DNA of 44,928 nt. Origin: an uncultured Gammaproteobacteria bacterium. Its GTDB lineage: Bacteria; Pseudomonadota; Gammaproteobacteria; Steroidobacterales; UBA11654. A program made the position numbers and the translations under genes. The notes below the pieces were generated by a model that saw only the letters and a program-made list of their open reading frames with translations, made no database searches and was not told the DNA's origin. Positions 14,139-38,109 of this stretch are shown here, piece after piece. The stretch covers positions 1 through 44,928 of the forward strand of contig CAXGBD010000002.1 in NCBI GenBank assembly GCA_964008355.1, read 5' to 3'. Position 1 is the stretch's first letter. The number at the start of each line of letters is the position of its first letter.

Positions 14139-14394
14139 TCCATCTCCTAAAAAAATAGTACAAACAGCTACATCTTAGATGATGTAGAGACTAGACATTA
14201 ACATAGGTCTTTGTCTAGTAATTGATATAGATCAGTTTTTATATGATTTAGATCAATTTCAAAACCAATATCAATCTATATCATTGATAAGTAATGGATA
14301 TTGATATTATTCTTGAAGCCGGTTTAGTAGTCTGCAAACTAAAATCTTGCTCTCGACTTAGGGCGGAAGATAGGAAGATTAGGAGGGACGAGTT

Positions 14395-15552
14395 ATGATG
14401 TTTACTAATGTTTGGTATGTAGCTGAATCGAGCGATAAAATCAAGGATCAGCCTGTGGGAGTGACAATGTTGGGCCGGGATTTCGTGCTATTTCGCGATC
14501 AGTCCGGTAAACCAGTTTGTCTCAGTGGCGTTTGTCCACACCGCGGGGCTGACTTGTCTCAGGGAAAGTGTGAGCCTGATGGCACGGTCGGTTGTCCTTT
14601 TCATGCGTGGCGTTTTGACAGTAACGGCAGATGCACAAAGATTCCTTCCAACAAAGATCCGGTCGGTGAGATTCCCGATGCAGCACGTGTTGATTCTTAC
14701 CCAACGGAAGAAAAATATGGTTACATCTGGGTATTCTTGGGCGATGATCTAGAAAATGCAGAGCCAATCTTCGACATACCAGAATACAAAGATTCGGCAT
14801 GGTCCAGTGTGACACATGCCGTGACCTGGAACTGTAATCAGCATTGGGCAAAGCAGCTTGATCTCGATCACGTGCATTTACCGATCGTACATGGTATCGG
14901 CTTCGGTGGTGACAACCCAGTTAGACCCCCGGATCATACGGTTGAATATCGTAATGACGGCGGCTTTGAAGCCAAGATCTCTGGCAAGCCGGATATCACA
15001 AAGGGCAAGTGGTTGGAGCTACGCGATACACGCAGTGAGGTGTCTTCGAAATTCAAGTATTTCGTGCCTGGATTTACATCACGTGGCAAAGTTGCTGTCG
15101 GCGGGGTAGAAAAAGGGCTCTATAACATTTTCTATCAGTTCACGACACCGATCGATGAAGAACACACGCGGATGTACTACACGTTTTTCCGTAACTTCAT
15201 GACGGGACCGGAGGGTGATGCTGAACACCTGCGCCGCAATTGTCGGAATATTTATCAGGATAAATCATTGGCGGAAAAGGTCATGCCGAAACGAGCACCG
15301 GATGTACCGGTCTATCCGATGATTACCGCAGACCGCGAGGATAAACTTATCGGTGCATATTGGAAAGTCCTTCAGAACTTGCGGAGCAAGGGCTGGCAGA
15401 TCGACCGGGTACAGCTTGAAGCGTTGGATCAAAACGGTGACCACCGGACTATCCCTTCACCCGCACGTCGGCAGGAAGGTCCTGAGAAATGGGTATTCGA
15501 AGAAATACCCCGCATTGCTGGCACTGATAAGGCACAGCGTGATATAGCCTGA
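14395..15552 (+). CDS. Rieske non-heme-iron oxygenase (subfamily A), GC-rich copy
   Basis: CPHRG...CPFHAW plus DHVHLPIVH, with an AGGAGG site 8 nt upstream. It is a clear paralogue of 3915..5030 but has much higher GC and GC-ending codons. Confidence 0.85.
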   Translation: MMFTNVWYVAESSDKIKDQPVGVTMLGRDFVLFRDQSGKPVCLSGVCPHRGADLSQGKCEPDGTVGCPFHAWRFDSNGRCTKIPSNKDPVGEIPDAARVDSYPTEEKYGYIWVFLGDDLENAEPIFDIPEYKDSAWSSVTHAVTWNCNQHWAKQLDLDHVHLPIVHGIGFGGDNPVRPPDHTVEYRNDGGFEAKISGKPDITKGKWLELRDTRSEVSSKFKYFVPGFTSRGKVAVGGVEKGLYNIFYQFTTPIDEEHTRMYYTFFRNFMTGPEGDAEHLRRNCRNIYQDKSLAEKVMPKRAPDVPVYPMITADREDKLIGAYWKVLQNLRSKGWQIDRVQLEALDQNGDHRTIPSPARRQEGPEKWVFEEIPRIAGTDKAQRDIA

Positions 15553-15616
15553 ACGCAATCGATCAATGTCGGAACCAAGGTACCGGCTGCAATACAACAG
15601 ATTAAGGAGAGCAACG

Positions 15617-15973
15617 ATGAGTCGAGTAAGTAAAATCAACAAAGAACAAAGTGACGGACACTGGAATCTTGTGCGTTTCCGATCAGATGCGTATGACGCC
15701 TGCCAGGCACTTGAAGAAATCGCCTTCGCTGATGGCGCCTTGTCGACAAAGACCAAGGAACTAATGGCGGTTAGTATTTCAATACAAACTGGATGTGAGG
15801 CTGCTATTCAGAAGCACATCGACCGGGCCGCTGAACAGGGAGCAAGTTTTGAGGAGTCATTAGAAGCTATTGAGGTAAGTATCGCCATGGGTGGCAGTAC
15901 AGCCGCTGCCGCTGCGCATGTCGCTTTTTATGCCTTGGACCAGGTCTACTCACGCGAAATTCTCAAGTTCTAA
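15617..15973 (+). CDS. Carboxymuconolactone decarboxylase (CMD/AhpD-like) family protein
   Basis: The pattern FADGALSTKTKELMAVSISIQTGCEAAIQKHIDRAAEQGAS matches CMD-family proteins, with only the first Cys of the usual CxxC present. ATG 15617 follows AAGGAG, and the track start at 15566 has no such site. Confidence 0.65.
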   Translation: MSRVSKINKEQSDGHWNLVRFRSDAYDACQALEEIAFADGALSTKTKELMAVSISIQTGCEAAIQKHIDRAAEQGASFEESLEAIEVSIAMGGSTAAAAAHVAFYALDQVYSREILKF

Positions 15974-16037
15974 CTATAAACAGCCTCTGGAGAAATTCTA
16001 AGCCAGACTGAGTGCCTCTCAAGAGCGAATAACCTGG

Positions 16038-16955
16038 ATGCATCACCTAGAATTCAACAAGACAGGTCCTTTGCAAATCTTTTACGATCTGTTTGAAGAG
16101 CATATGTCCCTGGATGACAATTACCAGTTCTACTCGAACAGCAAAAAAGCAGGAATCAACACGTTTCTCAGCTCCGATATATTCAGCGCTGAGAAAGTTT
16201 CAACGATCATCCTTGAAGAATATTCAATCCGGGGAAAACTGGGCGGCAACGTCATGTTGACTTTTCCCGATCCTGAATACGATGTGCCTATTTTTGCATT
16301 TCAGCTGGGCGGGAATGCCACCAAATCCAAATCATTTGCCCTGTTAGATATCAGTCCAACATTACCCGATTTAGACTACGAGCCTCTGATTCCGGTATTC
16401 GAAAAATACAGAAAACTTCTCGACTTGCCTCGATCAAAAATTGATTGGGTCAATAGCACGAGCTCGCCGTACCTGCTGCTTTGCCAATACGATACTCTGG
16501 ATATCAAGCTGTTCCTCGAAGCCACAAGGGAATACCTGAAGGTATGGATCGAACATTATTACAAACCGGGCAAAAAACTAACCAATGAAAAGGCCTTTGA
16601 GAACGTCAACAATGCCATCATTAAATACAAACGGGTCCTGCACGACAACGATCCTGCTTACGGCATATTTCACAAAGAGTGGGGCGAACCCGTCGCCGAC
16701 GCATTCTTTTATATAGAGACCCGCAATCATCCATCAATCCCACCGCCGGATCATTCCGGAAAGACAAAAAAAGCATGGGAAAACAAGAGCTTGAATATTC
16801 TCTGGGAAATCCAGGCACAGGAGCGCGTTTTACAGGCTCCCGAGCAGGTACAAAAGCGTATTATTGACACCATTGAAGCGAAAGCGTCTGACGACAATAT
16901 GGGAATCATCACGCTGGAATTATTCGACAAATATAAAGAAGCTATATTCGTCTAA
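16038..16955 (+). CDS. Divergent ferredoxin-dependent bilin reductase (FDBR)-fold protein with a C-terminal extension
   Basis: Hand alignment to remembered PcyA. ILEEYSIRGKLGGNVMLTFPDPEYDVPIFAFQLGG...LLDISPT aligns with [36 protein letters not shown]...IADLSPT. NDPAYGIFHKEWGEPVADAFF aligns with [21 protein letters not shown]. Confidence 0.5.
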   Translation: MHHLEFNKTGPLQIFYDLFEEHMSLDDNYQFYSNSKKAGINTFLSSDIFSAEKVSTIILEEYSIRGKLGGNVMLTFPDPEYDVPIFAFQLGGNATKSKSFALLDISPTLPDLDYEPLIPVFEKYRKLLDLPRSKIDWVNSTSSPYLLLCQYDTLDIKLFLEATREYLKVWIEHYYKPGKKLTNEKAFENVNNAIIKYKRVLHDNDPAYGIFHKEWGEPVADAFFYIETRNHPSIPPPDHSGKTKKAWENKSLNILWEIQAQERVLQAPEQVQKRIIDTIEAKASDDNMGIITLELFDKYKEAIFV

Positions 16956-17001
16956 ACCGTCCGGTTAAACCTAATAAAAAAATGCACTTTTTTTAACTTT
17001 C

Positions 17002-17871
17002 TTACTTAAGCGGAGGTGCCGGAGTTTGTTCTCTTGCATAGTATTCCAGACTGGAAATGCTGGGTCCGTAATCTTCCGTTGGGGCGCTGAGCATATGTGG
17101 ATAATTTTCTTCAGCGAATTGCCTGATATGCTTTGGAATGATATCGATTGAATTTGATTTAATCATGGCTCCAACGTATACACAATGACCAGGTGTATCT
17201 CCCATTAACATCCAAGGTAGCCAGGGTGTTATGCGACTCCAGGTTCCATTGTAGTGCACTGAAGTTAATTCAGGATTTTGTAATTCGTCTAATGATACAA
17301 AATAGCGCATCATTTCAGAGACTTGAGCCATTGGACCTGATGATTCTCTGACCCACTTATCAGGTTGCAGCGCATTGGGATAATAAAGGTGCATATCAGT
17401 ATTTAAAACCACGGTATCACCTATTATTCTCCAGGGGAAAAGCAGAGGAATTTTGATTGGCTGTTGTTTTTCCTTTCCTGGAAAATCTTCAGGAGCAAGG
17501 ATCAGCCACTCACTGATCGTATAATTAAAGGGATCATTGGCGACGTGAACGACATTAACCACTTCTTCTGTCCAGGGATTGGTCCATTCATGAATGATTT
17601 CACCGCTTCGAGAATTGGTGTAGAAAATAACCTCCTTATTTAATCGACGAATCGTACCGTCCTCTTGCTGAGGCAGCAGTCGGGTACACAAAAATGTTTC
17701 AAATCCGCACAATTCTTTTACAGCCTCACCAGGCTTAACACCAAGAATTTGGCCATTGACATAACTAATTGATTCATTCTCTGAGTTTAAATCACCCTGG
17801 ATTCTAGCCCAGGCGTCTCTGTTCCATGTATTGGATTGAAAATTTATTTCATGTTCAAATTCAATGGTCAT
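17002..17871 (-). CDS. DUF1838-like protein of unknown function
   Basis: The core EVIFYTNSRSGEIIHEWTNPWTEEVVNVVHVANDPFN resembles my recollection of DUF1838. There is no signal peptide. ATG 17871 follows AAGGAG. Confidence 0.45.
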   Translation of the reverse strand: MTIEFEHEINFQSNTWNRDAWARIQGDLNSENESISYVNGQILGVKPGEAVKELCGFETFLCTRLLPQQEDGTIRRLNKEVIFYTNSRSGEIIHEWTNPWTEEVVNVVHVANDPFNYTISEWLILAPEDFPGKEKQQPIKIPLLFPWRIIGDTVVLNTDMHLYYPNALQPDKWVRESSGPMAQVSEMMRYFVSLDELQNPELTSVHYNGTWSRITPWLPWMLMGDTPGHCVYVGAMIKSNSIDIIPKHIRQFAEENYPHMLSAPTEDYGPSISSLEYYAREQTPAPPLK

Positions 17872-17884
17872 TCTTTTCTCCTTG

Positions 17885-18412
17885 TTAACGCGATTCACGC
17901 ATGATGTAATTAATAATTAATTTTCTTGTATCTGGATCTTCAATTCCTTCCATTCTCATCCTATTTCCAGGAATAAAATCTTTAGGATTGGACATGAAAG
18001 CATCCAATGCCTCTGGTGTCCAGATCAACCCGTTATTTTTCATCTGGATGAGTGCATCAGAATATGTGAAATTGTCAGAGATACCTGCAGGTTTAGCAAA
18101 AATACGATATAAACTTGGAGCCATTCGATCTCTATCATTAGCTTTTATTGAATGACAGAATCTACACTTGCCCCCATCCCAGTTGGAAAAGGCATCTGCT
18201 TCCATTTGCTTTTGTTCATCGCTGATCATTGGTAGTTCATTGAGATAATAATCTGGCAGATCCAGATTGGCAGTTAATTGCTTAATCTCATCTGGGGTGG
18301 CATTGGTTGTATTGGTCAATGGATAGGCACCAAATATTAGGTAGGGCAAATAACAAGATACTGCTAGTAAAATTAAAACCAAAAGCCAGTCTTTTTTCTT
18401 GCCAATTTTCAT
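17885..18412 (-). CDS. Membrane-anchored class I c-type cytochrome
   Basis: N-terminal TM anchor WLLVLILLAVSCYLPYLIF, heme motif CRFCH, and a distal PGNRM Met ligand as in cytochrome c2/c550. Confidence 0.8.
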   Translation of the reverse strand: MKIGKKKDWLLVLILLAVSCYLPYLIFGAYPLTNTTNATPDEIKQLTANLDLPDYYLNELPMISDEQKQMEADAFSNWDGGKCRFCHSIKANDRDRMAPSLYRIFAKPAGISDNFTYSDALIQMKNNGLIWTPEALDAFMSNPKDFIPGNRMRMEGIEDPDTRKLIINYIMRESR

Positions 18413-18431
18413 TGCTTACCCATCTTAATAA

Positions 18432-18953
18432 TCAAGTGAAAATATTAAATCGCCAAACCCGGTAACGGATCATATGATAAATACCTATGAGTACAATAAA
18501 CAAGATGATAGCGATATATAAAAATGCAAATACACTGTGAAGATAACCAGAAAAAACCCACAGAGCATGATTAACAGATTCCGAGCTCGATTGAAATTGT
18601 ATCAACCCGTCAGACCAAGCGGTAACCACACCGGTAAGCCCCTGAGCAATGAAGGAACAATAAAGAGTAAACTGAAGAACATGCAATTGATTGAAAGCTT
18701 CTTGTGGTAATTTTTGTTGTTTGTTTTGAGGAGGGAAGTGCCACCAAATATAAACCCTGAGAAAACTAAATGCGAATAAGATGGAAGCAATTGCCAAATG
18801 AAAACTTCTTAACGAAGCCCTTTCAGGTGATTCGATCGGAACTCTAGGGGCCACAGACATGTTGATGAAAACCACAATGAATAGTACAAGAATTAGCCAA
18901 CTTAATAACGTGGATGTCTTATCTGCTACTGTTGTTTTTTGTAAGTGATCCAC
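18432..18953 (-). CDS. Cytochrome b561 (CybB-like) membrane protein
   Basis: Four TM helices with His residues placed as in E. coli CybB (RSFHLAI, QLHVLQF, VNHAL...YLHSV). The position of the first CybB HW motif reads SW. The GTG start lies 2 nt after the upstream stop. Confidence 0.55.
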   Translation of the reverse strand: MDHLQKTTVADKTSTLLSWLILVLFIVVFINMSVAPRVPIESPERASLRSFHLAIASILFAFSFLRVYIWWHFPPQNKQQKLPQEAFNQLHVLQFTLYCSFIAQGLTGVVTAWSDGLIQFQSSSESVNHALWVFSGYLHSVFAFLYIAIILFIVLIGIYHMIRYRVWRFNIFT

Positions 18954-18955
18954 GT

Positions 18956-19741
18956 TTAAAGATTTTGCATAAAGGTTTTAAAAGTGTCGACAATCGTTGC
19001 CGAGTCTAAGTCAGTTTCATAATTCTTGCCACTGATTTCTTTATAGGTTGCATCTGGTCTGAGTTCTTTTGCTACGTTAAAAAACGGATATAAAACATCA
19101 TCTGGGGCACACATTATCAGCATGGGGCAATCAATTTGCTTAAAAAGGCTTATGAAGTCCTGCTCCCAAACCGATTCGTGTGCTTGGTGTACTGAATGAT
19201 AAGCTCTCAAGGTGTCCAGCGTTTCTCTGTGGTGCAGTTCAAGGTGGCCTCTTGCTCCAAGGATATCTCCCACTAAATTCCACGCCATCATCAAGTGGCT
19301 GCCGTCATCGACTGGACTCCAATCTGCACCCATAGATGCTCGCATGACCTCTTTTTCTTCTACCGTTGCGGCAAAGGGACCGATCATGGTTATTGAGGAG
19401 ATTAAACTTGGGTATTCATTGGCAATTTCGACTGCCATACAGGATCCTGTGTGGTGGCCAAAGAGGTGAAGTTTTTCCAATGAGAGAGCTTCAAAAATTT
19501 GTAGCAACCAATCGCAATATTCTTTCATAGTTGGGGTATTGACAGGGTCAAAACTTGCTCCGAAACCGGGGGTATCAATAGCATACATGGAGTGTTCATT
19601 TCCAAGTTGATTCATTATTGCTTCAAACATCCTTGAAGAACTGGGAACTTGATGCAGGAAAACAATCGGTAAGCCTTCACCTTCAACAAAGCGGATATGA
19701 CACTGTCCCTCAGAAGTATCAATATATTTTTTTCTAATCAT
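18956..19741 (-). CDS. Alpha/beta-hydrolase-fold protein with a non-canonical nucleophile elbow
   Basis: Fold markers VFLHQ, DTPGFGAS and an elbow reading FGHHTGS instead of G-x-S/D-x-G. The start overlaps the MFS stop (ATGATTAG). Confidence 0.7.
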   Translation of the reverse strand: MIRKKYIDTSEGQCHIRFVEGEGLPIVFLHQVPSSSRMFEAIMNQLGNEHSMYAIDTPGFGASFDPVNTPTMKEYCDWLLQIFEALSLEKLHLFGHHTGSCMAVEIANEYPSLISSITMIGPFAATVEEKEVMRASMGADWSPVDDGSHLMMAWNLVGDILGARGHLELHHRETLDTLRAYHSVHQAHESVWEQDFISLFKQIDCPMLIMCAPDDVLYPFFNVAKELRPDATYKEISGKNYETDLDSATIVDTFKTFMQNL

Positions 19742-21068
19742 TTATATGCACCTCGTCAGGTTGTAATTTTGATTGAAACAGCATACCAGGGGCTCTTATT
19801 CTGACAATAATTGTAGCCAAAAGTAGCACACTATGCATTCCACATATGAAAAGGAATGGACCTGAAGGTCCCAGTTGATCAAATAGTCGACCCCCCAAAG
19901 CGGTCGCTGTTAGAATGCCTATTGCTCCAAAAAGCGTGCTGATACCTATAATCGAACCCCGTTGTTTAGCAGGAGCTTCTTGCCCGATCAGGCTACTTGT
20001 GGCTATGACGGTCCCAATGGCACTGCAGGAAACTAGAATAAAGAAGGGTAGATTGGAATAATTCAATGGGGAATCGATCAAGGCCATAGAACCATAGGCA
20101 ATGGTTCCCAAAGTCATCGCCACAATCATGCCGCTTACCCGATTGATACGGTCAAGTATTGCGCCAAAAATAAAAGCCCAAACAATACTCACTAAATTGG
20201 TTACAACAATAACCCGGACAACTAGTTGGATCGAATCGGCTGCAGACAATCCCATCATTGCTCCACTCTGTATCGCCCATAGTGAGATAAATATGCCATT
20301 AACTGAAACATCTGCTCTTGCCAGAAACGTTGTCCCAAACGAGAGTGCGATTCTCGGGTTCTTAAATGATTGTATGCCGACTGTAACCAGCTCTTTTACA
20401 GAAGGTTTCTGACTCAATTTTTCCGGAGTTCCGCCTTTTAATCCCAGTTGAAAAATCAGTCCAGAAATCAGGAATACAATTCCAACAATGATCATTGTAT
20501 ATCGTCCAGATGTAACTGGATCGAGACCGTTGTTGGTAAAGTATTTGGGAAGTTGACCCAGTATAAAAGCGAAGACAGCAACACCTAAGGCATTCAATAC
20601 CGAGTGCATGCTAATAAACTTAGCCCTTGATTGTTCCTTAGGATAATCATTGACGATGATTGCAATCGTTGAGGCAAGTGCAGCTGCACCTAAAGCAAAT
20701 AGGGCCCGATACGCGAACAACTCACCTGTGGATGTCGCGAAGGGATACAAAGCAAAACCAATGGCCGAAACCACCGTTCCAAAAACCATGACTGATCGCC
20801 TGCCTATCCGATCTGCTAGGATGCCAAAAAATGCAACGAATAATATTGCTATAATTTCTTGAATAAAAGCTAAATCCCCACTGATGGTTCCTTGATTGGA
20901 TTTCGGGATAGCAAGATTCTCCGTGAGTATATATCCTTGAATGAAGTTCATTCCAGCCAGTACTCCAATACAAATAAAGCAGGCGTAGAAATATGTAATG
21001 ACATTGAACCGAGAGATTCCTGGTGCCAATTGTATTGGGCCGAATTTATTGTTCAAATCTTTCTCCAT
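19734..21068 (-). CDS. MFS transporter (type X, paralogue of 5137..6447)
   Basis: 444 aa with GPIQLAPGISR and ADRIGRRS, collinear with the 5137..6447 product. Confidence 0.8.
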   Translation of the reverse strand: MEKDLNNKFGPIQLAPGISRFNVITYFYACFICIGVLAGMNFIQGYILTENLAIPKSNQGTISGDLAFIQEIIAILFVAFFGILADRIGRRSVMVFGTVVSAIGFALYPFATSTGELFAYRALFALGAAALASTIAIIVNDYPKEQSRAKFISMHSVLNALGVAVFAFILGQLPKYFTNNGLDPVTSGRYTMIIVGIVFLISGLIFQLGLKGGTPEKLSQKPSVKELVTVGIQSFKNPRIALSFGTTFLARADVSVNGIFISLWAIQSGAMMGLSAADSIQLVVRVIVVTNLVSIVWAFIFGAILDRINRVSGMIVAMTLGTIAYGSMALIDSPLNYSNLPFFILVSCSAIGTVIATSSLIGQEAPAKQRGSIIGISTLFGAIGILTATALGGRLFDQLGPSGPFLFICGMHSVLLLATIIVRIRAPGMLFQSKLQPDEVHIND

Positions 21069-21096
21069 GCTCTAGTAGGAATCGCCTATGAATCAT

Positions 21097-22164
21097 TTAC
21101 CAGTAATGCACCCAACGAGCATTTTCCAGAAATTTTTTGTATGCGTCCTGTTTATTTTTAGGTAGGGTTTTTAGATACAGTCCAGAATCATATCGTTCCT
21201 GATATTGATCAAATACAGGTTGGTATAATTTCAAATGCAAATCTGGAATTCGATGTTTTTCTCTGAAGGCTTTGATTGGAATGGAAGCCGCTATTTTTGT
21301 CTCAAAAACCCCAGCCTTTGCTATTTCTAAGCCTCTAGGACCAAATATCGCAGAACGCCCTGGCCCTCCATAATTTGCATCGTCAAAAAAACCGGGGTTG
21401 CGTTCCCCAGTATTGATTGAGTTGTTGGCAATTAATGTATACAGACTGTTATGGTAGGAGGTGAGTCGCATATCCTCATATTCAAATCCACCGGTTGCAA
21501 CTCGGCAAATAATTTCAGCCCCCTTAAAGGCCATACATCGAAATAACTCAGGTTCAAATTGAACAGCCGACATGGCGATGTTTCCAATATCAGTTTGAAC
21601 AACAGGAATCACCTGATCTTGTCCATACATTTCTATAAAACGATCATAAACATCATATATGGAACTGGTGTACTGTTCTGATCCTGGAAATAGGCCACGG
21701 ACATTTCTCTGTTTCCAATGTTTTGCAACAACATCACCATCAGGGCCCATCATCACCATTAAGTGTAGGATGTGTTCAGGCCAATCAGGATCCTTGGCGT
21801 ATGTTCCGAAAACAATATAGCAGCCGTGTTCTTTGCATTTTTTTCCTATTTCTTCAGTTTCTACTCCCGGGACCTCGATGGCTACTTTGTAGTGCTCTTC
21901 CTTAGACCAATTACTGAATCCGGTGATGGGGAATTCATGAAAGCATATGAGATCACTTCTACCACCAAAGCCTTGAGTAATATCGATGCATTCCAGCAAG
22001 TAGTCCAAGTTTTTTCTTATGCCTTTAGGAGGATTTTTTCCATCTACACCCTGGACTCTGGTTTGGGCAATGGCGATCGAGATCATGTCTTTTTTTAAAG
22101 GAGCAGTGGAGTAGGTTCCATCTGCACGGACCATAGCATCTTTCTCTTTGTTTTCTGAGGGCAT
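21097..22164 (-). CDS. Carbon-nitrogen hydrolase, aliphatic amidase/formamidase-like, with Ser at the catalytic Cys position
   Basis: ICFHEFP (Glu), KHWKQ (Lys), and IAMSAVQFEPELFRCMAFKGAEIICR aligned to AmiE [29 protein letters not shown]. ATG 22164 (MPSENKE) follows AGGAG. Confidence 0.75.
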   Translation of the reverse strand: MPSENKEKDAMVRADGTYSTAPLKKDMISIAIAQTRVQGVDGKNPPKGIRKNLDYLLECIDITQGFGGRSDLICFHEFPITGFSNWSKEEHYKVAIEVPGVETEEIGKKCKEHGCYIVFGTYAKDPDWPEHILHLMVMMGPDGDVVAKHWKQRNVRGLFPGSEQYTSSIYDVYDRFIEMYGQDQVIPVVQTDIGNIAMSAVQFEPELFRCMAFKGAEIICRVATGGFEYEDMRLTSYHNSLYTLIANNSINTGERNPGFFDDANYGGPGRSAIFGPRGLEIAKAGVFETKIAASIPIKAFREKHRIPDLHLKLYQPVFDQYQERYDSGLYLKTLPKNKQDAYKKFLENARWVHYW

Positions 22165-22340
22165 AAAGCTGCTCCTAGGACACATTAAATTATTTGAGAC
22201 TATAGCATATATATCAGAGTTTGTAGTTGGGCCTAATTATTCACATTCATTGAATCTTGCAGTCAAAAAGAGAAGTGAGAATGACATAATTCAGCCCGGT
22301 ACAGGTAAGCAAAAACGCATAAAATAATCTTATTGTTATA

Positions 22341-23810
22341 ATGTGGAGTGTGGGAAAACCGATTACAACTGGTCAAGAGTATATTGAAAGTTTGCGAAAT
22401 CGTGAGCTTTCTGTATATCTCTTTGGCGAGCAGATCGATGATCCAGTTGAACACCCCATCATTAGACCTTCTATTAATGCGTTAGCAGCAACCTACGATC
22501 TTGCACAAACAAACCCAGATTTAGCTGCTTCTGTTTCGCCTTATACCGGCGAAAAGATTAATCGATTTCTACATATTGCTGAGAATGCAGACGATCTTAT
22601 TTTGCAGAACAAAATGCAGAGAAAATTAGGTCAACTAACAGGTACTTGCTTTCAAAGATGTGTTGGAATGGATGCTATTAATAGTCTGCATTCAGTGACC
22701 TATGACATGGACCAAAAATATCAATCAGATTATCACCAGAAATTTTTATCCTTTCTTACCATGGTGCAACATGGTGGGTTTGTTATCAGTGGAGCAATGA
22801 CTGATGTCAAAGGGAATCGCAATTTATTGCCACATCAGCAATCTGATCCTGATCTTTACGTCCGAGTTGTGGATCGCAATGAAGATGGAGTTTTTATCCG
22901 TGGAGCAAAAGCCCATCAAACGGGGTGCATCAACTCGCATTGGTTGATTGTAATGCCAACATTAAGATTAACGGAAAAAGATAAAACATACGCTATTGTT
23001 GGAGCCATACCGGTTGATGCCAAAGGGATTACTTATATATATGGCAGACAATCGAGTGAAACCAGGCATATGGAAGAATCAACGATTGATACAGGCAATC
23101 AAAAATTTTCGGGACAAGAGGCATTGGTTATTTTTGAAAATGTTTTTATTCCGAACAAGTTTGTTTTTCTAGATGGTGAATATGAATTTGCTGCACCTTT
23201 GGTGGAACGATTCACTTGTTATCATCGAAGAAGTTATGTCTGCAAATCAGGGGTAGGGGATGTTTTAATTGGTGCCGCAGCTACTATTGCTGAATACAAT
23301 GGTGTCGACAAGGCATCACACGTCAAAGACAAGCTGACGGAAATGACACATTTGAATGAAACAATTTATGGGGTTGGCATATCTTCCAGCCAGGAGTCAG
23401 AAGCCATGCCATCCGGTGTTTATATGCCTAATGATATGTTGGCCAATGTTTGTAAACATCATGTAACAAAATTGACTTATGAAATCGGAAGACTGGCACA
23501 AGATCTAGCAGGGGGTTTGGTTGCAACGATGCCATCTGAGAAGGATTTAAAACATCCTGAATTGGGTAAAATTATTCAGAAATATCTCAAGACTAAACCG
23601 GATCTTGACCCTGAAGATCGTGTGCGCATACTCCGTCTCATTGAAAATATGACATTGGGACGCAATGCTGTAGGATATTTAACAGAATCTCTTCACGGTG
23701 CAGGCTCTCCACAAGCACAGAGGGTTCGAATTGCACAACAAATGCAATTAGACTTTAAAAAAGAATTGGCACGTGCCCTAGCCGGAATTGTTCCAGAGCC
23801 AAAGGTGTAA
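22341..23810 (+). CDS. abfD: 4-hydroxybutyryl-CoA dehydratase / vinylacetyl-CoA delta-isomerase family
   Basis: Collinear high similarity to remembered Clostridium aminobutyricum AbfD (YIESLR, HPIIRPSIN, GAMTDVKGNR, RGAKAHQTG, GRQS, GQEALV, ASHVKDKL.EMTHLNET, HGAGSPQAQR). Cluster-ligand motifs CFQRCVGMD and YHRRSYVCK are present. Confidence 0.85.
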   Translation: MWSVGKPITTGQEYIESLRNRELSVYLFGEQIDDPVEHPIIRPSINALAATYDLAQTNPDLAASVSPYTGEKINRFLHIAENADDLILQNKMQRKLGQLTGTCFQRCVGMDAINSLHSVTYDMDQKYQSDYHQKFLSFLTMVQHGGFVISGAMTDVKGNRNLLPHQQSDPDLYVRVVDRNEDGVFIRGAKAHQTGCINSHWLIVMPTLRLTEKDKTYAIVGAIPVDAKGITYIYGRQSSETRHMEESTIDTGNQKFSGQEALVIFENVFIPNKFVFLDGEYEFAAPLVERFTCYHRRSYVCKSGVGDVLIGAAATIAEYNGVDKASHVKDKLTEMTHLNETIYGVGISSSQESEAMPSGVYMPNDMLANVCKHHVTKLTYEIGRLAQDLAGGLVATMPSEKDLKHPELGKIIQKYLKTKPDLDPEDRVRILRLIENMTLGRNAVGYLTESLHGAGSPQAQRVRIAQQMQLDFKKELARALAGIVPEPKV

Positions 23811-23818
23811 CTGTTGAT

Positions 23819-24931
23819 TTAGTTCTTCAGCAGAGGAATAGGATCTAATACCCAATTTTTCTCAGTGTTTCTAGCTGGGCAAGGAACAGAATATGCGGTT
23901 TGATGTTCCTCTTCTTTCAGTTTTTTTGTATCAATCTTAAATCCTTTGCTTTTGAATCCTGCCAGTGTTTTTCGGTATTCGCCAACAACAGCATCTGATG
24001 GAACCAATATCTCTTTGTTCATGGTTGGAGGGGTAACAACGGGTTGAGTGACATTTAAAATCGTAATGTCTTCTTTGGCAATAGCAAGGTTTCTCTCTGT
24101 AACCATCGCATCCATAGACTCCTCCATAAGCCAGTTACGCATGTTGACAAAAAATATCTGAGTGTGAAACTCATCAATTGGTTTTTCGAAAAAATATTGA
24201 TGAAACCAACCAGTTTCTTTTTTGGTATGAATTTGTGTAATCAAAGCATTAGGACCATGGTATCCGCCTAAAACTTCGAGTTCACCAGACTCATCTCTTG
24301 CAGTCTCACCATAGGTTTTCTTATCCAGAGGAGGAGCATCAAAGACTTGAGAAAAATTTGCTCCCCATTGAGTTTGAGATATTTTAGTAGGGTTGACTTT
24401 GTAATCGTTTTTTACACCTGAGAATCCATGGGTTGGATGGACAAATTCATTGTGTGCCGGATCCAATCCATTTTCAATGGAGCGTTCATAATTATAATCA
24501 ATATCGATGGTAATAGTCTCATTAGCACGCCATCCCTCAGCTTCATATTCCTCAATTTCATAGAGTCCTGGTCTTTCTTCCTCGGAAAGATCACCCAGAA
24601 AGGCAAAAATGATGTCATATTTTTCAATCACTGGATAACTATCAACCTTCGCTCTTGCTGGAGGTTTTTCGTTGTAACCAATAGATGGCACGGTAATACA
24701 TTTTCCATCGCCATCAAATTGCCAACCATGGTATGGACAGGCGACTGCGTTATTTAAGCATTTTCCATCACCTAGAGAACCTCCACGATGAACACAGACG
24801 TTACTAAGACAGTGGGCTATGCCTTTCTGGTCCCTGAAAGCAACAAACTCAACACCAAGTATTTTTCGCTTGATCGGTTTATCTTCCAGTTCATTGGTTA
24901 AGCAAACGGGATACCAAAAATTGATATACAT
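23819..24931 (-). CDS. Rieske non-heme-iron oxygenase (subfamily B)
   Basis: CVHRGGSL...CPYHGWQF plus ENGLDPAHNEFVH. 370 aa. Confidence 0.85.
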   Translation of the reverse strand: MYINFWYPVCLTNELEDKPIKRKILGVEFVAFRDQKGIAHCLSNVCVHRGGSLGDGKCLNNAVACPYHGWQFDGDGKCITVPSIGYNEKPPARAKVDSYPVIEKYDIIFAFLGDLSEEERPGLYEIEEYEAEGWRANETITIDIDYNYERSIENGLDPAHNEFVHPTHGFSGVKNDYKVNPTKISQTQWGANFSQVFDAPPLDKKTYGETARDESGELEVLGGYHGPNALITQIHTKKETGWFHQYFFEKPIDEFHTQIFFVNMRNWLMEESMDAMVTERNLAIAKEDITILNVTQPVVTPPTMNKEILVPSDAVVGEYRKTLAGFKSKGFKIDTKKLKEEEHQTAYSVPCPARNTEKNWVLDPIPLLKN

Positions 24932-25033
24932 TTATTTTCCCCTATTAATCTGATCCAGATTGATTATATTCGTATCAGGCTAATAATTTAAGCCGGATAA
25001 GTAATTATTTGTAACAAGCATAGTGAGTTGTGA

Positions 25034-26254: not shown

Positions 26255-27154
26255 TTAATTATTTTCTTTGTTCTGATTGAGCAGTTTCTGTTTAAATCCT
26301 GTAGGTGTAAAGACCGCAATTAGGGTGATCATAATCACAGTTCCTAAAACAACTAGAATCTCAGTTAAGTATTCCTGGGGGTATACCCAGAATTCTACCA
26401 ATAATCCCCATTTGCCAATCACTTCATAGGAACTGTATGCGATGATTGCGGTCGGAATGGCGTACCTGATAGCGGTAGTGACTTTCCAAAATTTAAATAA
26501 TCTCCACAATAGATAAACAGCCCAAGTGGTATTTAGAACAAAGAAGGCGTAGGTAATGGGATGATAAGCACCAATAAATGCATCTTCATAAAGCAGCAAA
26601 AGAATTATGTAGAAAAACCAAATTACGTATATCGTTTCGAGTGCGGTTATGGCTGCAAAGTTTCTTGGATAGCCGGGAGTTGGTTTTCCTGTTGATAGTT
26701 TAAAATTTCGCTGAATCCATTTGAAGAAATTGCATTTTGTTTCTCGATTCAATAAAAAGTAGAGCAAGGTTGTTAATAGAACCCCAATCGAGGACTGCAT
26801 CAATAAGTACTCTGGAAATCTATTGAGACTGCCATCGGGAAGAATTTGTTCAACTTCAAGATATTCTGCATAGAAAACAAAGGAAAACTCAACCCAGCCT
26901 GTCCACAGAAAAAGACCTGCAAAATAGCCCAACCAAGTTGCTGGCACTTCATTTTCTTTTTTCATCCCTATAAACAGGAGAATTCCTCCCAATATTCCAA
27001 GATAGAATGCCCCTTGGTATTGGTAGTCGGCGCCAAGAGTTTTTTCGACAAGCACCATCAGAGTGTGTCCCAATCCCTGAGTTAGAAATACTATTAGAAA
27101 GGCCAATATGCCTACATAAGGCGGTTTATAAAATACTTCTTTAACGTGGCTCAT
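26255..27154 (-). CDS. Polytopic membrane protein of unknown function
   Basis: 299 aa with about 8 hydrophobic, Trp/Tyr/Phe-rich segments. I recognise no family motif. Confidence 0.6.
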   Translation of the reverse strand: MSHVKEVFYKPPYVGILAFLIVFLTQGLGHTLMVLVEKTLGADYQYQGAFYLGILGGILLFIGMKKENEVPATWLGYFAGLFLWTGWVEFSFVFYAEYLEVEQILPDGSLNRFPEYLLMQSSIGVLLTTLLYFLLNRETKCNFFKWIQRNFKLSTGKPTPGYPRNFAAITALETIYVIWFFYIILLLLYEDAFIGAYHPITYAFFVLNTTWAVYLLWRLFKFWKVTTAIRYAIPTAIIAYSSYEVIGKWGLLVEFWVYPQEYLTEILVVLGTVIMITLIAVFTPTGFKQKLLNQNKENN

Positions 27155-28284: not shown

Positions 28285-30624
28285 GTGACGCAGAAAATAA
28301 AACAAAATTCTTTTCTATCTCTTTTGGAGTTATTGTTTTTTGTTTTTCTTGGTTTTAATCCTATACATGCAGAAATAGTGATTGATGGAGAACTCAGCGA
28401 GGCTGAGTGGAATCAAGCACAAGTAATCGAAGATTTTGTTGTGACTAGACCTTTTAGTCTAGAAGCTCCCACATACAAAACAAAGGTTTTGATCTATTCA
28501 GACCTGGAAGGCATTTACGTTGGCTTTGTTAATCAGCAACCCATGGAGACCAGGGATCGGAGAAGACACAATCGCGACATGCTCAAACAAGACTACGACC
28601 GGAATATCGTCGTCATCGATTTTGATAACAAAGGCAACAGTGCCTATATGTTGGGCGTATCCTTAAGCGAATCGTTAATAGATTTCACTATCACTAATGA
28701 AAGTGAAACTGATGGGGATTGGGATGGGGAATGGTTTGCTAAAACATCAGAATCAGAAGAAAACTGGTACTCGGAGTTCTTCATTCCTTGGACCATGGTA
28801 TCGATGAATCAGCAAAAAGGTCCAAATCGAAAAATCGGTATTTCAACCAGTAGGCTGATTCAACATGAGGCAAAATACGTTGCTTTTCCGCAGGCATCAC
28901 CTCTGAGGAAAAAATTTCTCTCCTTGTTGCACACCATTGAAGTTGTTCAGTCCAACCCGAGACGACTTGATTTTTACCCCTATCTTGTAAGTAAGGGCAA
29001 TTTTGTGGATGACGATATGTCCTATCAGGCGGGTTCTGAAATATTTTTTGCCAATGGTAGCGGTGGTGAACTTAGCGTGACTCTCAACCCTGACTTCGGT
29101 CAGGTTGAAAGCGACAACATAGTCATTAACTATTCTGCACGAGAGACATTTTATTCTGATAAAAGGCCATTTTTTACTCAAAGCCAGTCCCTGTTTGAAA
29201 TTTCCAATGAATGGTATCCTGGTTTTGAACTATATTCGATCATTCACACCAGAAGAATAGGTGCTCGTCCAGATTATGATTGCTCAAAGTATGGTTCTGA
29301 CTCAGGTGGCAGTGATGAGGACGAGTTGCAATGTTTAAGCAGCCAAGAAATGAACAACGATATTGATGTGGCGCTCAAATATACTCAATTAGGCGATAAA
29401 ACAGATTTCGGCTTCTTCGGTGCTTTTGAGCATGATGAGGATTTTAGTGAGGGTAAGGACTTTTTCGCAGTTAGAACCTCACACAGAGCTGGAAACCACA
29501 AAATCGGCCACATGTTGACCCATGTTGATCGAAGTGCTATTGACCGGGATGCCACTGTCAATGCATTTGATTATCAATTTACCCCAAACGACATCATAAA
29601 ATTTGACAGTGTTCTTATGTTCTCTGATTCAAATCAGGAAAAGAGTGGATTTGGCTCAAGAAACGCTGTTGTTTTTGAGCACAACAAAAAATGGCGAAGC
29701 GGTGCCGAGTTCTATTATTACAATGACAAACTCAATATTGACGACATGGGATATTTGTATCGAAACAATTTGTTCTCTGGAGGGGCAAATGTGAGCTATA
29801 CCAGAACCGATTTCACCAAAGATTCGCCGGTTCTGAGTCGAAGCTATAGTTGGGATTTTTGGAGTGAAAACAATGCAGATGGAGAAACCATTGACAATTC
29901 TATTGTATTGTTTTTCATGCAGCAATTCAAAGACACATCAAGCATCCATTTAAACATATTTACTAATAGTGAGGGAATAGACGATGATGTAACGCGTGGC
30001 AGTTTATCCGCACCATTTCTAGAAAGTGGCAAAGGACTGGCTACTGACTTTAACTACAACACGAGAATTATTGGAAAATGGCAAGCAGATTTAAATGTGT
30101 ATGCACAAAAAAAGGACCGCCTTTCTTTTACTGAGCGTACCAGACGTGTATCGACAGGACTACGTTATTTTCCTTCCGACAATTTAAGATTCTATTTGCA
30201 ACTATCCCATACTAAAGTTAATAACTGGTTTATCTGGAGGAGCGACAACCACTATGCTACTTATCAATCAAGGAATACCACGATTAAGCTGAATTCCAGG
30301 TGGTACCCTGATGATCGTCAGGAGTTTCAGGTTAAGCTTGAAATGGTGGCTTTCAGAAACCAGGATGGCAAAGGATGGACTGCTGATACCTTGGGATACC
30401 TAAATAGTTTAGGTACCTCAGAATCAAGCATCAATTCAGGAAGACTCTCTTTTCAGATTAGATACAAATATGAGATTGCTCCTCTGTCCAATATTTACCT
30501 CGTCTACACTAGGGGCGGAAATAATTATTTTGATGATGAGTCAGGGACAAGCAGGATTTATAGGGAAACATGGCGAGATCCAGAAAGCAATCGGTTGGTG
30601 CTGAAAGCTCGAATCAAATTCTAA
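28285..30624 (+). CDS. Secreted CBM9-like + DUF5916 outer-membrane protein, copy 1
   Basis: GTG start 3 nt after the fabD-like stop. Signal peptide ends IHA/EIV, followed by an IDGELSEAEW CBM9-like N-terminus. DUF5916 hallmarks NPDFGQVESD, DKRPFFTQS and HTRRIG are present, and the C-terminus ends in Phe. Confidence 0.75.
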   Translation: MTQKIKQNSFLSLLELLFFVFLGFNPIHAEIVIDGELSEAEWNQAQVIEDFVVTRPFSLEAPTYKTKVLIYSDLEGIYVGFVNQQPMETRDRRRHNRDMLKQDYDRNIVVIDFDNKGNSAYMLGVSLSESLIDFTITNESETDGDWDGEWFAKTSESEENWYSEFFIPWTMVSMNQQKGPNRKIGISTSRLIQHEAKYVAFPQASPLRKKFLSLLHTIEVVQSNPRRLDFYPYLVSKGNFVDDDMSYQAGSEIFFANGSGGELSVTLNPDFGQVESDNIVINYSARETFYSDKRPFFTQSQSLFEISNEWYPGFELYSIIHTRRIGARPDYDCSKYGSDSGGSDEDELQCLSSQEMNNDIDVALKYTQLGDKTDFGFFGAFEHDEDFSEGKDFFAVRTSHRAGNHKIGHMLTHVDRSAIDRDATVNAFDYQFTPNDIIKFDSVLMFSDSNQEKSGFGSRNAVVFEHNKKWRSGAEFYYYNDKLNIDDMGYLYRNNLFSGGANVSYTRTDFTKDSPVLSRSYSWDFWSENNADGETIDNSIVLFFMQQFKDTSSIHLNIFTNSEGIDDDVTRGSLSAPFLESGKGLATDFNYNTRIIGKWQADLNVYAQKKDRLSFTERTRRVSTGLRYFPSDNLRFYLQLSHTKVNNWFIWRSDNHYATYQSRNTTIKLNSRWYPDDRQEFQVKLEMVAFRNQDGKGWTADTLGYLNSLGTSESSINSGRLSFQIRYKYEIAPLSNIYLVYTRGGNNYFDDESGTSRIYRETWRDPESNRLVLKARIKF

Positions 30625-30805
30625 TTAATCCAGTAAAAAACCCTAAAAAAATATAAAGCTTTTGATTATCACATCAGTTATTATTCTGCGATCAATATCA
30701 ACTCAATAAAGGAATCTGTCGCATCTATTTCTTCGAATTGATTTGAATCAATGTATTTTTTAATTAATATTTTGATAATTAAACTTAAGTGACTAAAAAA
30801 AATAA

Positions 30806-33187: not shown

Positions 33188-33595
33188 CTAATTAGCTTGT
33201 TCAAGTTCGATCAATGATCCCATAAAGTTTTTTGGATGCAAGAACAGTACAAGTTTGTTATTGGCTCCAAGATAGGGCTCACCCGTACCTAAAACTGTCA
33301 TTCCTTGACTGGTCAATTGATCTTTGGCAGCGAAGATGTCTTCAACCTCATAACACAGATGATGAATGCCACCTTTAGTATTTCTCTTTAAAAAACTATC
33401 AATTGGTGATTGATCTCCCAATGGTTGTATCAATTCTATTTTAGTATTTTCCAAATGAACAAAAACAGCAGTTACGCCGTGTTCAGGGAGTTCATGGGGT
33501 TTTGAAACTTTTGCTCCCAATACATCTCTATAGATTGATGTGGCCTCTTCTAGATCTGGTACCGCAACAGCAATGTGATTGAGTTTTCCTATCAT
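33188..33595 (-). CDS. mce: Methylmalonyl-CoA epimerase (VOC fold)
   Basis: 135 aa with KLNHIAVAVPDLEEA ... GIHHLCYEV motifs. ATGA overlap with meaB, within the mcm/pcc operon. Confidence 0.85.
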   Translation of the reverse strand: MIGKLNHIAVAVPDLEEATSIYRDVLGAKVSKPHELPEHGVTAVFVHLENTKIELIQPLGDQSPIDSFLKRNTKGGIHHLCYEVEDIFAAKDQLTSQGMTVLGTGEPYLGANNKLVLFLHPKNFMGSLIELEQAN

Positions 33596-34608
33596 TTGTT
33601 TTTACTCAGCTTACTTAAAAAATTGGCAATGATATTTTTTGCTTCTGTCTTTACCGACCGATTTTCTTCAGAGAGTTTTTCTTGCATAGTCTTTAATTTA
33701 TTCTGGATCTCTTCATCTTCATCAAGCGCGTCAAGTAATCCTTGTCTGGTTTCTTTTATCAGCCATTTTTCTTTTTGCTGGTTTCGATTGCTTTCCAGTT
33801 GGTGACTGATTAATAACAGTTCTCGTAAATTCTGGATGGACTGCCAGCATTTTTCAAGTCCTCTTTTTTTAAGAGCAGAACAAGCAATAATAGGCACTGA
33901 CCAATCTTTAATTCTTGGTTTCATCAGTTTTAAGGCATTTTTATAGTCCAGAACTGTGCTCCTTGATAAAGATTCCAGATCACCATCAGATTTATTGACT
34001 ACAATGATGTCAGATAATTCAATGATGCCTCTTTTAATCCCTTGCAATTCATCTCCACCACCCGGGTTCAGGAGTACAATGAAAATATCAGTCATTTCAA
34101 ACACTTCTGTCTCAGATTGTCCGACTCCAACGGTCTCCACCAGAGTGACATTAAATCTGGCTGCCTCAACAATGGCAATAGACTCTCTTGTGGAGCGATT
34201 CACACCGCCTAAATTGTTGCCCGAAGGCGAAGGTCTAATGAATACATTTTCATCTTGACTGAGAGAGGTCATTCTTGTTTTATCTGCCAGAATGGAACCG
34301 CCACTGATGGATGATGTGGGATCGACTGCCAAAATAGCCAATCGATTACCTTCTTTTAAAATCAGTTGCCCAAGCGCTTCGATGAAGGTGGACTTACCCA
34401 CGCCTGGAGTACCTGAAATGCCAATTCTTATGGAAGATTCATTGGCAGTACCTAGTTGTTCCAGCAATGCTTCGGCATTGGCACGGTCGTCGGTTTTTAT
34501 TGATTCCATCAGAGTGATCGCTTGTGCAATCGCTTTTCTGTTGCCCGACTTTATTCCATCAACCAAGTCAATTATTTCAGATGCTTCCAATTCAATCCTC
34601 AAATTCAA
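33592..34608 (-). CDS. meaB: Methylmalonyl-CoA mutase-associated GTPase (MeaB/ArgK)
   Basis: P-loop GTPGVGKST, VETVGVGQSE and NKSD. The apparent TTG start overlaps the pccA stop by 17 nt. Confidence 0.85.
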   Translation of the reverse strand: MNLRIELEASEIIDLVDGIKSGNRKAIAQAITLMESIKTDDRANAEALLEQLGTANESSIRIGISGTPGVGKSTFIEALGQLILKEGNRLAILAVDPTSSISGGSILADKTRMTSLSQDENVFIRPSPSGNNLGGVNRSTRESIAIVEAARFNVTLVETVGVGQSETEVFEMTDIFIVLLNPGGGDELQGIKRGIIELSDIIVVNKSDGDLESLSRSTVLDYKNALKLMKPRIKDWSVPIIACSALKKRGLEKCWQSIQNLRELLLISHQLESNRNQQKEKWLIKETRQGLLDALDEDEEIQNKLKTMQEKLSEENRSVKTEAKNIIANFLSKLSKNK

Positions 34609-36565: not shown

Positions 36566-36570
36566 TTTAT

Positions 36571-38103: not shown

Positions 38104-38109
38104 ACACTT

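Follow-up and report, generated by a model that had tools for sequence, protein, structure and literature searches.

In a stretch of DNA of 44,928 nucleotides (nt) from an uncultured gammaproteobacterium of the GTDB lineage Steroidobacterales; UBA11654 (assembly GCA_964008355.1, contig CAXGBD010000002.1; hereinafter the window), positions 17002-22164 are occupied by a block of six minus-strand genes which encode, in the direction of transcription, a nitrilase-fold protein, a major facilitator superfamily (MFS) transporter, an alpha/beta-hydrolase-fold (ABH) protein, a divergent cytochrome b561, a membrane-anchored cytochrome c and a DUF1838 protein. On balance, our comparative analysis favors the view that this block, rather than being one dedicated pathway, is a mosaic specific to its lineage in which three or more modules, each conserved independently, are transcribed together. 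A preceding reading of the window, made from the letters and their open reading frames (ORFs) without database searches (hereinafter the sequence-only reading), had proposed a single uncharacterized oxidative or detoxification module. Its family assignments are right, as indicated by Pfam profiles and, for the cytochrome c, by the match to solved class I structures, and its statement that the combination matches no described pathway holds, given that no described system has this composition. The proposal of a single dedicated module stands in part: the genes are co-directional and transcribed, and a core of five is kept in all but one species of the GTDB family to which the window belongs (20 species genomes in two genera, all of approximately 1.1-1.6 Mb; hereinafter the family), but the block falls apart outside this family.

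The separation is clearest for the two cytochromes. The relatives of the block b561 are at least 49% identical within the family, and in a 300-genome sample of the order, identity drops abruptly to approximately 30% in sister families. There, the b561 gene (approximately 30% identity) adjoins a gene for an anchored cytochrome c (approximately 40% identity), with no MFS, ABH or DUF1838 gene within 1.5 kb; farther out, the surroundings of this pair differ between loci, and the recurrent genes are those for hydantoinase A/B, IclR and aldehyde dehydrogenase. Furthermore, several proteins of 393-424 amino acids (aa) are fusions in which additional helices connect b561 to this class I cytochrome c domain, and the genes for the fusion proteins sit among metH, gatCA, mreC and rodA. 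The combination of gene fusion with conserved adjacency is strong evidence that b561 and cytochrome c constitute one functional unit that needs no other gene of the block. The fusions, which were found in a sister family (loci L139-L146, e.g., L140:8740-9939; proteins P0252, P0255 and P0259), look like an undescribed single-polypeptide b/c cytochrome.

The b561 protein is recognized by the PF01292 profile with 35.3 bits against a cut-off of 30.1, about half of its orthologs in the family fall just below the cut-off, and it is the sole PF01292 protein in each family genome. Comparison with the PDB sequences yielded no match, including any solved b561. The group is very small, with 29 proteins at E<=1e-3 among 1.84 billion representatives and, in a 400-genome sample of the class, one more carrier outside the order. 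The two hemes b of a prokaryotic cytochrome b561 have four histidine ligands, one in the first transmembrane helix (TM1), one in TM2 and two in TM4. In the block protein and its orthologs, the TM1 histidine is absent, the corresponding sequence being SW or GW. His52 in TM2 and His139 in TM4 are conserved in the family and in the sister family, and this pair we take, from CybB, to be the heme site on the periplasmic side; His91 and His160 are conserved in the family only and not in the sister-family proteins. Escherichia coli CybB, a membrane superoxide:ubiquinone oxidoreductase (PMC11869295), shares with the block protein the PF01292 domain, the four-helix bundle and the TM2 and TM4 histidine pair; by contrast, the block protein lacks the TM1 ligand and invariably occurs with a class I cytochrome c, either as a separate partner or in one fused polypeptide.

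The cytochrome c scores below the threshold of the Pfam Cytochrom_C profile (15.2 against a cut-off of 21.3), and a phmmer search readily matched it to class I cytochromes c of known structure (E=1.5e-16), including the membrane-anchored c552 of Paracoccus, with E around 1e-12 for the matches to c552 and c2. The heme-binding motif and a GNRM motif that probably supplies the methionine ligand are conserved, and the protein contains one hydrophobic segment (residues 10-28). This architecture, an N-terminal anchor followed by a mitochondrial-type class I heme domain, is that of c552, cy and CycM of Paracoccus, Rhodobacter and Bradyrhizobium. These anchored cytochromes shuttle electrons between the bc1 complex and the terminal oxidases, and to our knowledge, they do not pair with a b561. 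Unlike them, the block cytochrome c has a b561 partner, encoded next to it in two families and within the same polypeptide in others. A replacement of the bc1 complex by the b561-cytochrome c pair can be dismissed because 19 of the 20 family genomes encode the cytochrome b of bc1.

The conservation of the remainder of the block was assessed by a DUF1838 scan of species-representative genomes, which gave 80 loci, combined with tblastn searches with all six proteins and clustering of the ORFs. The order MFS-ABH-b561-cytochrome c-DUF1838 is kept in 19 of the 20 family species genomes, wherever the locus is complete, and b561 was found in the same number; the closest relatives with the five-gene order are metagenome-assembled genomes (MAGs) labelled Woeseia, Woeseiaceae or Gammaproteobacteria. 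The ORFs are intact, and the median identities within the family are 62% for the MFS transporter, 52% for ABH, 55% for b561, 59% for cytochrome c and 78% for DUF1838. The synteny extends to the flanks: upstream of the block are Rieske oxygenase genes and a gene of the SDR or HpaB family, and downstream of it follow NAD_binding_10, another MFS gene and a CoA-transferase gene, so that the conservation at the family level in part reflects general synteny. The block is thus conserved as a unit in other genomes, but these are confined to one syntenic family; beyond it, only b561 and cytochrome c stay joined. Nor do all six genes, which the sequence-only reading had treated as one unit, behave alike even within the family: the CN_hydrolase gene is present in one genus only, and the other genus has in its place a gene for a 559-aa ABH protein or nothing. 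Across the loci, the nitrilase-fold gene occupies the block position in the window and in one other locus (L011). The 559-aa protein found at this position elsewhere contains LHQSP and G(F/Y)HTG motifs, which identify it as a paralog of the ABH protein of the block.

The nitrilase-fold protein is a confident member of the CN_hydrolase family (PF00795, 56 bits against a cut-off of 23.2), and its best matches in both PDB and NCBIfam are AmiE and AmiF, the amidases of branch 2 of the nitrilase superfamily, with which it shares length, fold and the catalytic glutamate and lysine. The equivalog cut-offs are not reached, either for AmiE (NF009802, 47.9 bits against 427) or for AmiF (NF009803, 34.9 against 406). 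In the alignment with AmiF and with paralogs from the same genome, the catalytic glutamate (FHEFP) and lysine (KHWKQRN) are retained, whereas the nucleophilic cysteine of AmiE and AmiF is replaced by serine, in a gap-free register of MSAVQFEPE against ICWDQWFPE. The replacement is fixed: (M/L/I)SAVQFEPE is present in each of the 120 closest clusters of homologs (67-92% identity) and FHEFP in 119 of these. Also in contrast to AmiE and AmiF, there are paralogs with threonine at the cysteine position, and these carry export signals. Outside the family, three unrelated genomes contain orthologs of the nitrilase-fold protein with 69-73% identity. In every case, a Rieske/VanA_C oxygenase gene lies no more than 5 kb away, and in two of the three, this oxygenase is 60-62% identical to one of the Rieske proteins of the window (Rieske_b). 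This proximity in unrelated genomes indicates that the conserved partner of the nitrilase-fold protein is the upstream oxygenase module.

A comparable fixed substitution characterizes the ABH protein (Abhydrolase_1, 60 bits). Its nucleophile elbow reads GHHTG instead of GxSxG, with His97 aligned to Ser102 of PDB chain 4g5x (hereinafter, proteins with this replacement are denoted His-elbow ABH); the oxyanion-loop region contains the motif LHQxPSS, Asn240 occupies the position of the triad histidine, and Asp215 is retained. Residues H96, H97, T98, G99, D215, G238 and N240 are invariant among 44 homologs with 38-89% identity. The AlphaFold2 model (pLDDT 93) shows a canonical fold with a cap, with TM-scores of 0.77-0.83 to solved esterases and dehalogenases. 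Compared with the rest of the superfamily (esterases, fluoroacetate and haloalkane dehalogenases, the AidH lactonase), the protein has the same fold with a helical cap and the aspartate after strand 7 but differs in having histidine at the nucleophile position of the elbow, asparagine in place of the triad histidine and HQ in place of HG in the oxyanion loop. The invariance of these deviations across the His-elbow subfamily, which includes at least 502 relatives at E<=1e-5, among them proteins from the cultured Methylonatrum and Sandaracinobacteroides, implies non-canonical chemistry or binding. Thus, both hydrolase-fold proteins indeed lack the textbook nucleophile, as the sequence-only reading had noticed, but its description of them as degenerate does not apply: each belongs to a strongly conserved subfamily with fixed substitutions. 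Decay can be ruled out because the substitutions are invariant across large subfamilies, and the two proteins are fixed, selected variants that function either as non-canonical enzymes or as binding proteins.

In other lineages, homologs of the short ABH protein adjoin a gene for an approximately 530-aa FAD_binding_4 protein in three of three loci, and in two of these, genes for a UbiE-like methyltransferase and a small unannotated protein are also located next to the ABH gene. In L089:8038-9579 and L090:12072-13594, the gene for an approximately 117-aa unannotated protein lies beside that for an approximately 386-aa UbiE-like methyltransferase, near genes for His-elbow ABH homologs. A test for a flavocytochrome c of the PCMH type found no FAD_binding_4 gene among the annotated ORFs of the window (481-41454).

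The MFS gene (MFS_1, 113 bits) is linked to the ABH gene: in the window, its last 8 nt are also the first of the ABH gene, the two genes are adjacent in other family genomes, with overlapping or abutting matches in most, and MFS orthologs with 59-70% identity are located upstream of ABH in 18 family genomes. The window's own genome also encodes MFS paralogs, one of them directly upstream of a DUF1838 gene on contig C4 (see below). Among NCBIfam models, the best matches of the transporter are MamH (NF040986, 145.5 bits against a cut-off of 300) and MamZ (NF040998, 130.2 against 650), neither of which is reached. The magnetosome mamXY operon resembles the block in encoding an MFS protein beside a b-type and a c-type cytochrome (PMC3847676); however, the b cytochrome of mamXY is a YedZ-like ferric-reductase domain and its c cytochrome a magnetochrome, as opposed to the PF01292 and class I proteins of the block, which also lacks the other genes of magnetosome clusters. 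The identification of the transporter as MamH or MamZ, which would imply an iron-redox system, was therefore rejected on the strength of scores far below the cut-offs and the lack of other magnetosome features, leaving a loose analogy.

DUF1838 is the most conserved gene of the block (77-81% identity in the family), and the profile match is unequivocal (PF08894, 157.6 bits against a cut-off of 25, covering model positions 4-230 of 232). The AlphaFold2 model (pLDDT 93.2, pTM 0.89) is a closed beta-barrel of long strands, flanked by one helix at the N-terminus and by several at the C-terminus. A search of this model against PDB structures gave best TM-scores of at most 0.31 (PsbO, LmcA and a haemophore), a generic barrel likeness that offers no functional lead, and the search against PDB sequences gave no match. 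Near-invariance is limited to Asp, Glu, Tyr, Asn, Arg, Trp and Pro; neither Cys nor His belongs to this set, which argues against a metal or heme center and fits a ligand-binding or acid-base catalytic pocket. In the literature on DUF1838, we found two gene-table mentions in Streptomyces clusters, with no function, and 14 well-known control genomes contained no match to the family.

The clade of DUF1838 proteins with at least 58% identity to the block protein is leaderless, and relatives with approximately 50% identity carry twin-arginine translocation (Tat) signals. A hidden signal peptide encoded upstream of the block gene was considered and rejected because the frames upstream of the orthologs do not have the appearance of coding sequence and, in 42 of 81 cases, the available space is too short to accommodate it. 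Orthologs with 58-71% identity are present in many Gamma- and Alphaproteobacteria without cytochromes nearby. Their recurrent neighbors are the long His-elbow ABH (7 loci), the short one (2 loci, L060 and L064) and a second MFS; other genes found next to leaderless DUF1838 encode an enone reductase of the ADH_N_2 type (12 loci), a quinone reductase of the Flavodoxin_2 type (8 loci), a luciferase-like monooxygenase together with a flavin reductase, a pyrroloquinoline quinone dehydrogenase and a UbiC-like protein. Within the order, DUF1838 has expanded greatly: genomes of 2-4 Mb contain as many as 42 candidates each, often as tandem pairs.

The same associations recur within the genome that contains the window, a 1.4-Mb MAG that is 83% complete. 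This MAG encodes eight DUF1838 proteins, most with Tat or Sec leaders. In C12:3946-10381, a TonB-dependent receptor gene is flanked by two GxHxG ABH genes, and the divergent side carries a secreted nitrilase-fold paralog of the threonine type followed by a secreted DUF1838, so that this locus is a periplasmic counterpart of the set in the window. On C4, the MFS paralog mentioned above is directly followed by a Tat-DUF1838, and a second locus on this contig combines a Tat-FAD_binding_4/BBE oxidase with three DUF1838 genes and a gene for a dihaem cytochrome c. In C36:5456-10164, a tight plus-strand string comprises genes for a FAD_binding_4 protein (523 aa), a secreted protein of 604 aa without any Pfam match, a Tat-DUF1838 and a lipoprotein cytochrome c, which shares 35% identity with the cytochrome c of the block. 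Overall, 3 of approximately 15 CxxCH genes of the MAG lie within 3 kb of a DUF1838 gene, against 0.46 expected (Poisson P approximately 0.012).

The block is transcribed in situ. Several marine and hydrothermal-vent metatranscriptomes contain 88-97% of the sampled words of the stretch, and RNA contigs from four metatranscriptome runs could be placed on positions 15000-25000, namely 16037-20027 (two runs), 19999-22059 (one run) and 15000-21843 (one run), so that every gene junction of the block is bridged. In three of the four runs, the depth of the RNA contigs falls to 0-1.5 at 22014-22347, in the divergent intergenic region, with both flanks covered, which argues for RNA as opposed to DNA carry-over and for a transcription start at this place. 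The coverage by contigs is reduced over 22060-22380. The four downstream genes are covered two to three times deeper than the MFS and nitrilase-fold genes, and the contigs of two runs break near 20000-20027; these two features make an internal transcription start possible. RNA contigs from three runs also break exactly at 16037. Because the contigs are strandless, a polycistronic transcript is supported, not proven.

A promoter scan identified a weak sigma-70-like site on the minus strand (22217-22189), promoter-like sites being fewer than in shuffled sequences; no convincing terminator was found by a scan after DUF1838, and no inverted repeat was found in the divergent intergenic region. On the other side of this region from the block, on the plus strand, lies a gene of the HpaB/4-hydroxybutyryl-CoA-dehydratase family.

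The anatomy of the block reproduces that given in the sequence-only reading: the ORF list contains six co-directional genes with intergenic distances of 28, -8, 2, 19 and 13 nt (Table 1). The raw ORF spans are 21097-22185, 19734-21068, 18956-19741, 18432-18953, 17885-18412 and 17002-17898; as in the orthologs, the ATG codons at 22164 and 17871 were adopted as starts, and the distances were computed from these. Hydropathy analysis detected no hydrophobic segment or leader in the nitrilase-fold protein, ABH or DUF1838. The tight spacing is itself unremarkable because it is the norm in this MAG: in a crude ORF call, approximately 93% of the genome is coding, same-strand gaps have a median of 14 nt, with 69% of them at most 30 nt, and 16 runs of at least six genes are packed as tightly as the block. 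The single transcription unit that the sequence-only reading had deduced is supported in so far as the genes are co-directional and tight and all junctions are bridged by contigs, which lack strand information.

Table 1. Genes of the block at positions 17002-22164 of the window and the adjoining intergenic region
Feature	Positions	Strand	Description
CN_hydrolase (nitrilase superfamily)	21097..22164	-	355 aa, without signal peptide; Pfam PF00795
MFS transporter	19734..21068	-	444 aa, approximately 12 hydrophobic segments; MFS_1
Alpha/beta-hydrolase-fold (ABH), His-elbow	18956..19741	-	261 aa, without signal peptide; Abhydrolase_1
Divergent cytochrome b561	18432..18953	-	173 aa, four-helix membrane protein; PF01292 (Ni_hydr_CYTB)
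Membrane-anchored class I cytochrome c (mitochondrial/c2/c552-type)	17885..18412	-	175 aa, CRFCH
DUF1838	17002..17871	-	289 aa, leaderless; PF08894
Divergent intergenic region, probable block promoter region	22165..22340	.	RNA depth fall; weak sigma-70-like site

Starting from the observed anatomy, conservation pattern, transcription and b561-cytochrome c fusion, and with the roles of the components other than the cytochromes drawn from gene context, we propose a tentative model in which three modules would have been packed into one transcription unit in a streamlined genome. The first module would consist of the serine-type nitrilase-fold protein, an exchangeable accessory that probably belongs functionally with the neighboring Rieske oxygenases of the VanA type. 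The second, a small membrane b/c cytochrome unit, would juxtapose the heme of the periplasmic cytochrome c domain and the predicted periplasmic-side heme b of b561 (His52/His139), with a second, cytoplasmic-side heme (His91/His160) being possible; this unit may move electrons between the level of the periplasmic cytochromes c and the membrane or quinone side and stands on its own in related bacteria. The third module, comprising the MFS transporter, the His-elbow ABH and the leaderless DUF1838 barrel, would be part of a widespread uncharacterized network in which DUF1838 paralogs are repeatedly found with His-elbow ABH, nitrilase-fold proteins of the serine or threonine type, transporters, FAD-linked oxidases and c-type cytochromes. 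Conceivably, a small organic compound, which may be phenolic, quinonoid or nitrogen-containing, enters through the transporter, and the ABH-fold protein and DUF1838 might bind or convert it in the cytoplasm by non-hydrolase chemistry; coupling of this process to the cytochrome pair would be optional, not obligatory.

Several observations weigh against such a mosaic. The five genes never separate within the family and are bridged by RNA contigs, which leaves room for a link of the cytochromes to the genes that flank them. The DUF1838 paralogs adjoin c-type cytochromes at two other loci of the MAG, and these neighbors, on C36 and C4, hint at a real connection between DUF1838 and cytochromes. The roles suggested for DUF1838, the His-elbow ABH and the serine-type nitrilase-fold protein are read from gene context only. 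Outside the family, the counts are based on sets of loci that are of modest size and unevenly sampled, with genes called by a crude ORF finder. Finally, the strandless RNA contigs may merge overlapping transcripts or include DNA carry-over, and one of the runs (X26) covers the divergent intergenic region.

A more specific form of the original idea of an integrated oxidative or detoxification module would have the MFS protein import a substrate, ABH and DUF1838 oxidize or rearrange it in the cytoplasm, and the electrons pass through two b561 hemes to cytochrome c and on to a terminal oxidase. The invariant gene order in 19 of 20 family genomes, the RNA contigs that span all junctions and the cytochrome neighbors of DUF1838 on C36 and C4 are compatible with this scheme, as is the family-wide conservation of His91 and His160, which are predicted to lie on the cytoplasmic side and could hold a second heme that faces the cytoplasm. 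However, the same two histidines are not conserved in the sister-family proteins, where the cytochrome pair stands alone, and the fused version is encoded among housekeeping genes; DUF1838 orthologs with 58-71% identity have no nearby cytochromes; neither ABH nor DUF1838 contains a redox-cofactor motif, and no Cys or His residue of DUF1838 is invariant; and synteny within one streamlined family is weak evidence of a functional link. We regard an integrated module as improbable.

At the opposite extreme, the genes could share nothing other than the strand and a read-through transcript, with each protein active in a process unrelated to the others, the cytochromes, for example, as ordinary carriers between bc1 and an oxidase. 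This possibility is suggested by the 93% coding density, the 69% of same-strand gaps of at most 30 nt, the synteny of the whole region across the family, the presence of bc1, the resemblance of the cytochrome c to the membrane-anchored c552 shuttle and the location of the fused b561-cytochrome c among housekeeping genes. Pure adjacency is nevertheless unlikely. The partnerships of His-elbow ABH, DUF1838, CN_hydrolase and MFS proteins recur at independent loci as well as in other lineages, which indicates that at least these four are linked, and the 8-nt overlap of the MFS and ABH genes in the window is accompanied by a preserved adjacency in other family genomes.

Envelope protection of the LcoA-BcnA kind appears to be the least likely of the readings weighed here. 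The LcoA-BcnA(-PsrA) system detoxifies lipid peroxyls in Gram-negative bacteria; in it, a PF01292 b561 shares an operon, or a single fused protein, with a lipocalin whose beta-barrel takes ubiquinone-8 or octaprenyl compounds as ligands (PMC9113575). By analogy, the b561 of the block would work with the DUF1838 barrel as the carrier of a quinone, isoprenoid or lipid-derived electrophile, and NAD(P)H-dependent reductases encoded nearby would complete the detoxification. The likeness is that of a PF01292 b561 in an operon with a soluble beta-barrel, which in the case of DUF1838 is modeled confidently, and of the associated NAD(P)H-dependent reductases: leaderless DUF1838 is flanked by ADH_N_2, Flavodoxin_2 and UbiC-like genes elsewhere and by NAD_binding_10 in the family. 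Moreover, YceI (PF04264) is missing from all 20 family genomes, and the block b561 is their sole PF01292 protein. Yet the barrel of the known system is a YceI lipocalin, and DUF1838 neither matches the YceI profile nor finds a YceI protein among its 50 best folds (TM-score at most 0.31), so that its identification as a YceI lipocalin was rejected; BcnA is secreted, whereas DUF1838 has no export signal; an anchored cytochrome c intervenes between b561 and the barrel, and the fusion partner of b561 is cytochrome c, not the barrel; the TM1 histidine is missing; and the reductase neighbors are common catabolic genes, counted as raw numbers of loci.

All three of these explanations are rated below the mosaic of modules. 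A more far-reaching proposal, which we likewise consider a long shot, is that DUF1838, the His-elbow ABH and the serine- or threonine-type nitrilase-fold proteins constitute an unrecognized toolkit of enzymes or carriers, with periplasmic and cytoplasmic versions, that would handle quinonoid, phenolic or lipid-derived electrophiles and that, in the family, would be wired to the respiratory chain via the dedicated b561-cytochrome c. If this were the case, the toolkit would be a functional analog of LcoA-BcnA built from entirely different parts.

The surroundings of the block provide some further observations. In the relatives from the family, NAD_binding_10, MFS and CoA-transferase genes follow DUF1838 directly; in the window, bilin-reductase-like, CMD, Rieske and amine-oxidase genes (14139-17001) intervene between DUF1838 and these usual downstream genes. 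At 481-3001, LamB/YcsF, CT_C_D and CT_A_B genes in a row form a PxpABC-type 5-oxoprolinase set. Hydantoinase A/B genes recur not only beside the b561-cytochrome c pair of the sister family but also beside an ABH homolog (L091), and together with the 5-oxoprolinase set, this recurrence hints at a lactam or cyclic-amide theme. The interval 33188-40299 contains a complete, ordinary-looking set for the conversion of propionyl-CoA to succinyl-CoA, comprising a glyoxalase-type epimerase, MeaB, both propionyl-CoA carboxylase subunits and methylmalonyl-CoA mutase, which shows that the island feeds the catabolism of CoA esters. Two adjoining large genes (779 and 786 aa; 28285-33166) have DUF5916 as their only match, and a 299-aa ORF at 26255-27154 has no Pfam match.

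The organism that carries this block is a streamlined marine gammaproteobacterium of the deep sea with a genome of approximately 1.5-1.7 Mb, represented in marine, seawater and hydrothermal-vent metagenomes, and given that the block is kept in every species with so small a genome, it is probably important to the cell. Of the six genes, four represent conserved but functionally uncharacterized families, namely DUF1838, the His-elbow ABH, the serine-type nitrilase-fold protein and the small b561 family. What initially appeared to be a vaguely defined odd operon is now resolved into defined, testable modules, and cultured carriers of single families have been identified, namely Haliea sp. E17 and Niveispirillum for relatives of DUF1838, and Methylonatrum kenyense and Sandaracinobacteroides saxicola for the His-elbow ABH. 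Among these modules, the b/c cytochrome unit is new and minimal, and it is firmly supported by the gene fusion of b561 with cytochrome c.

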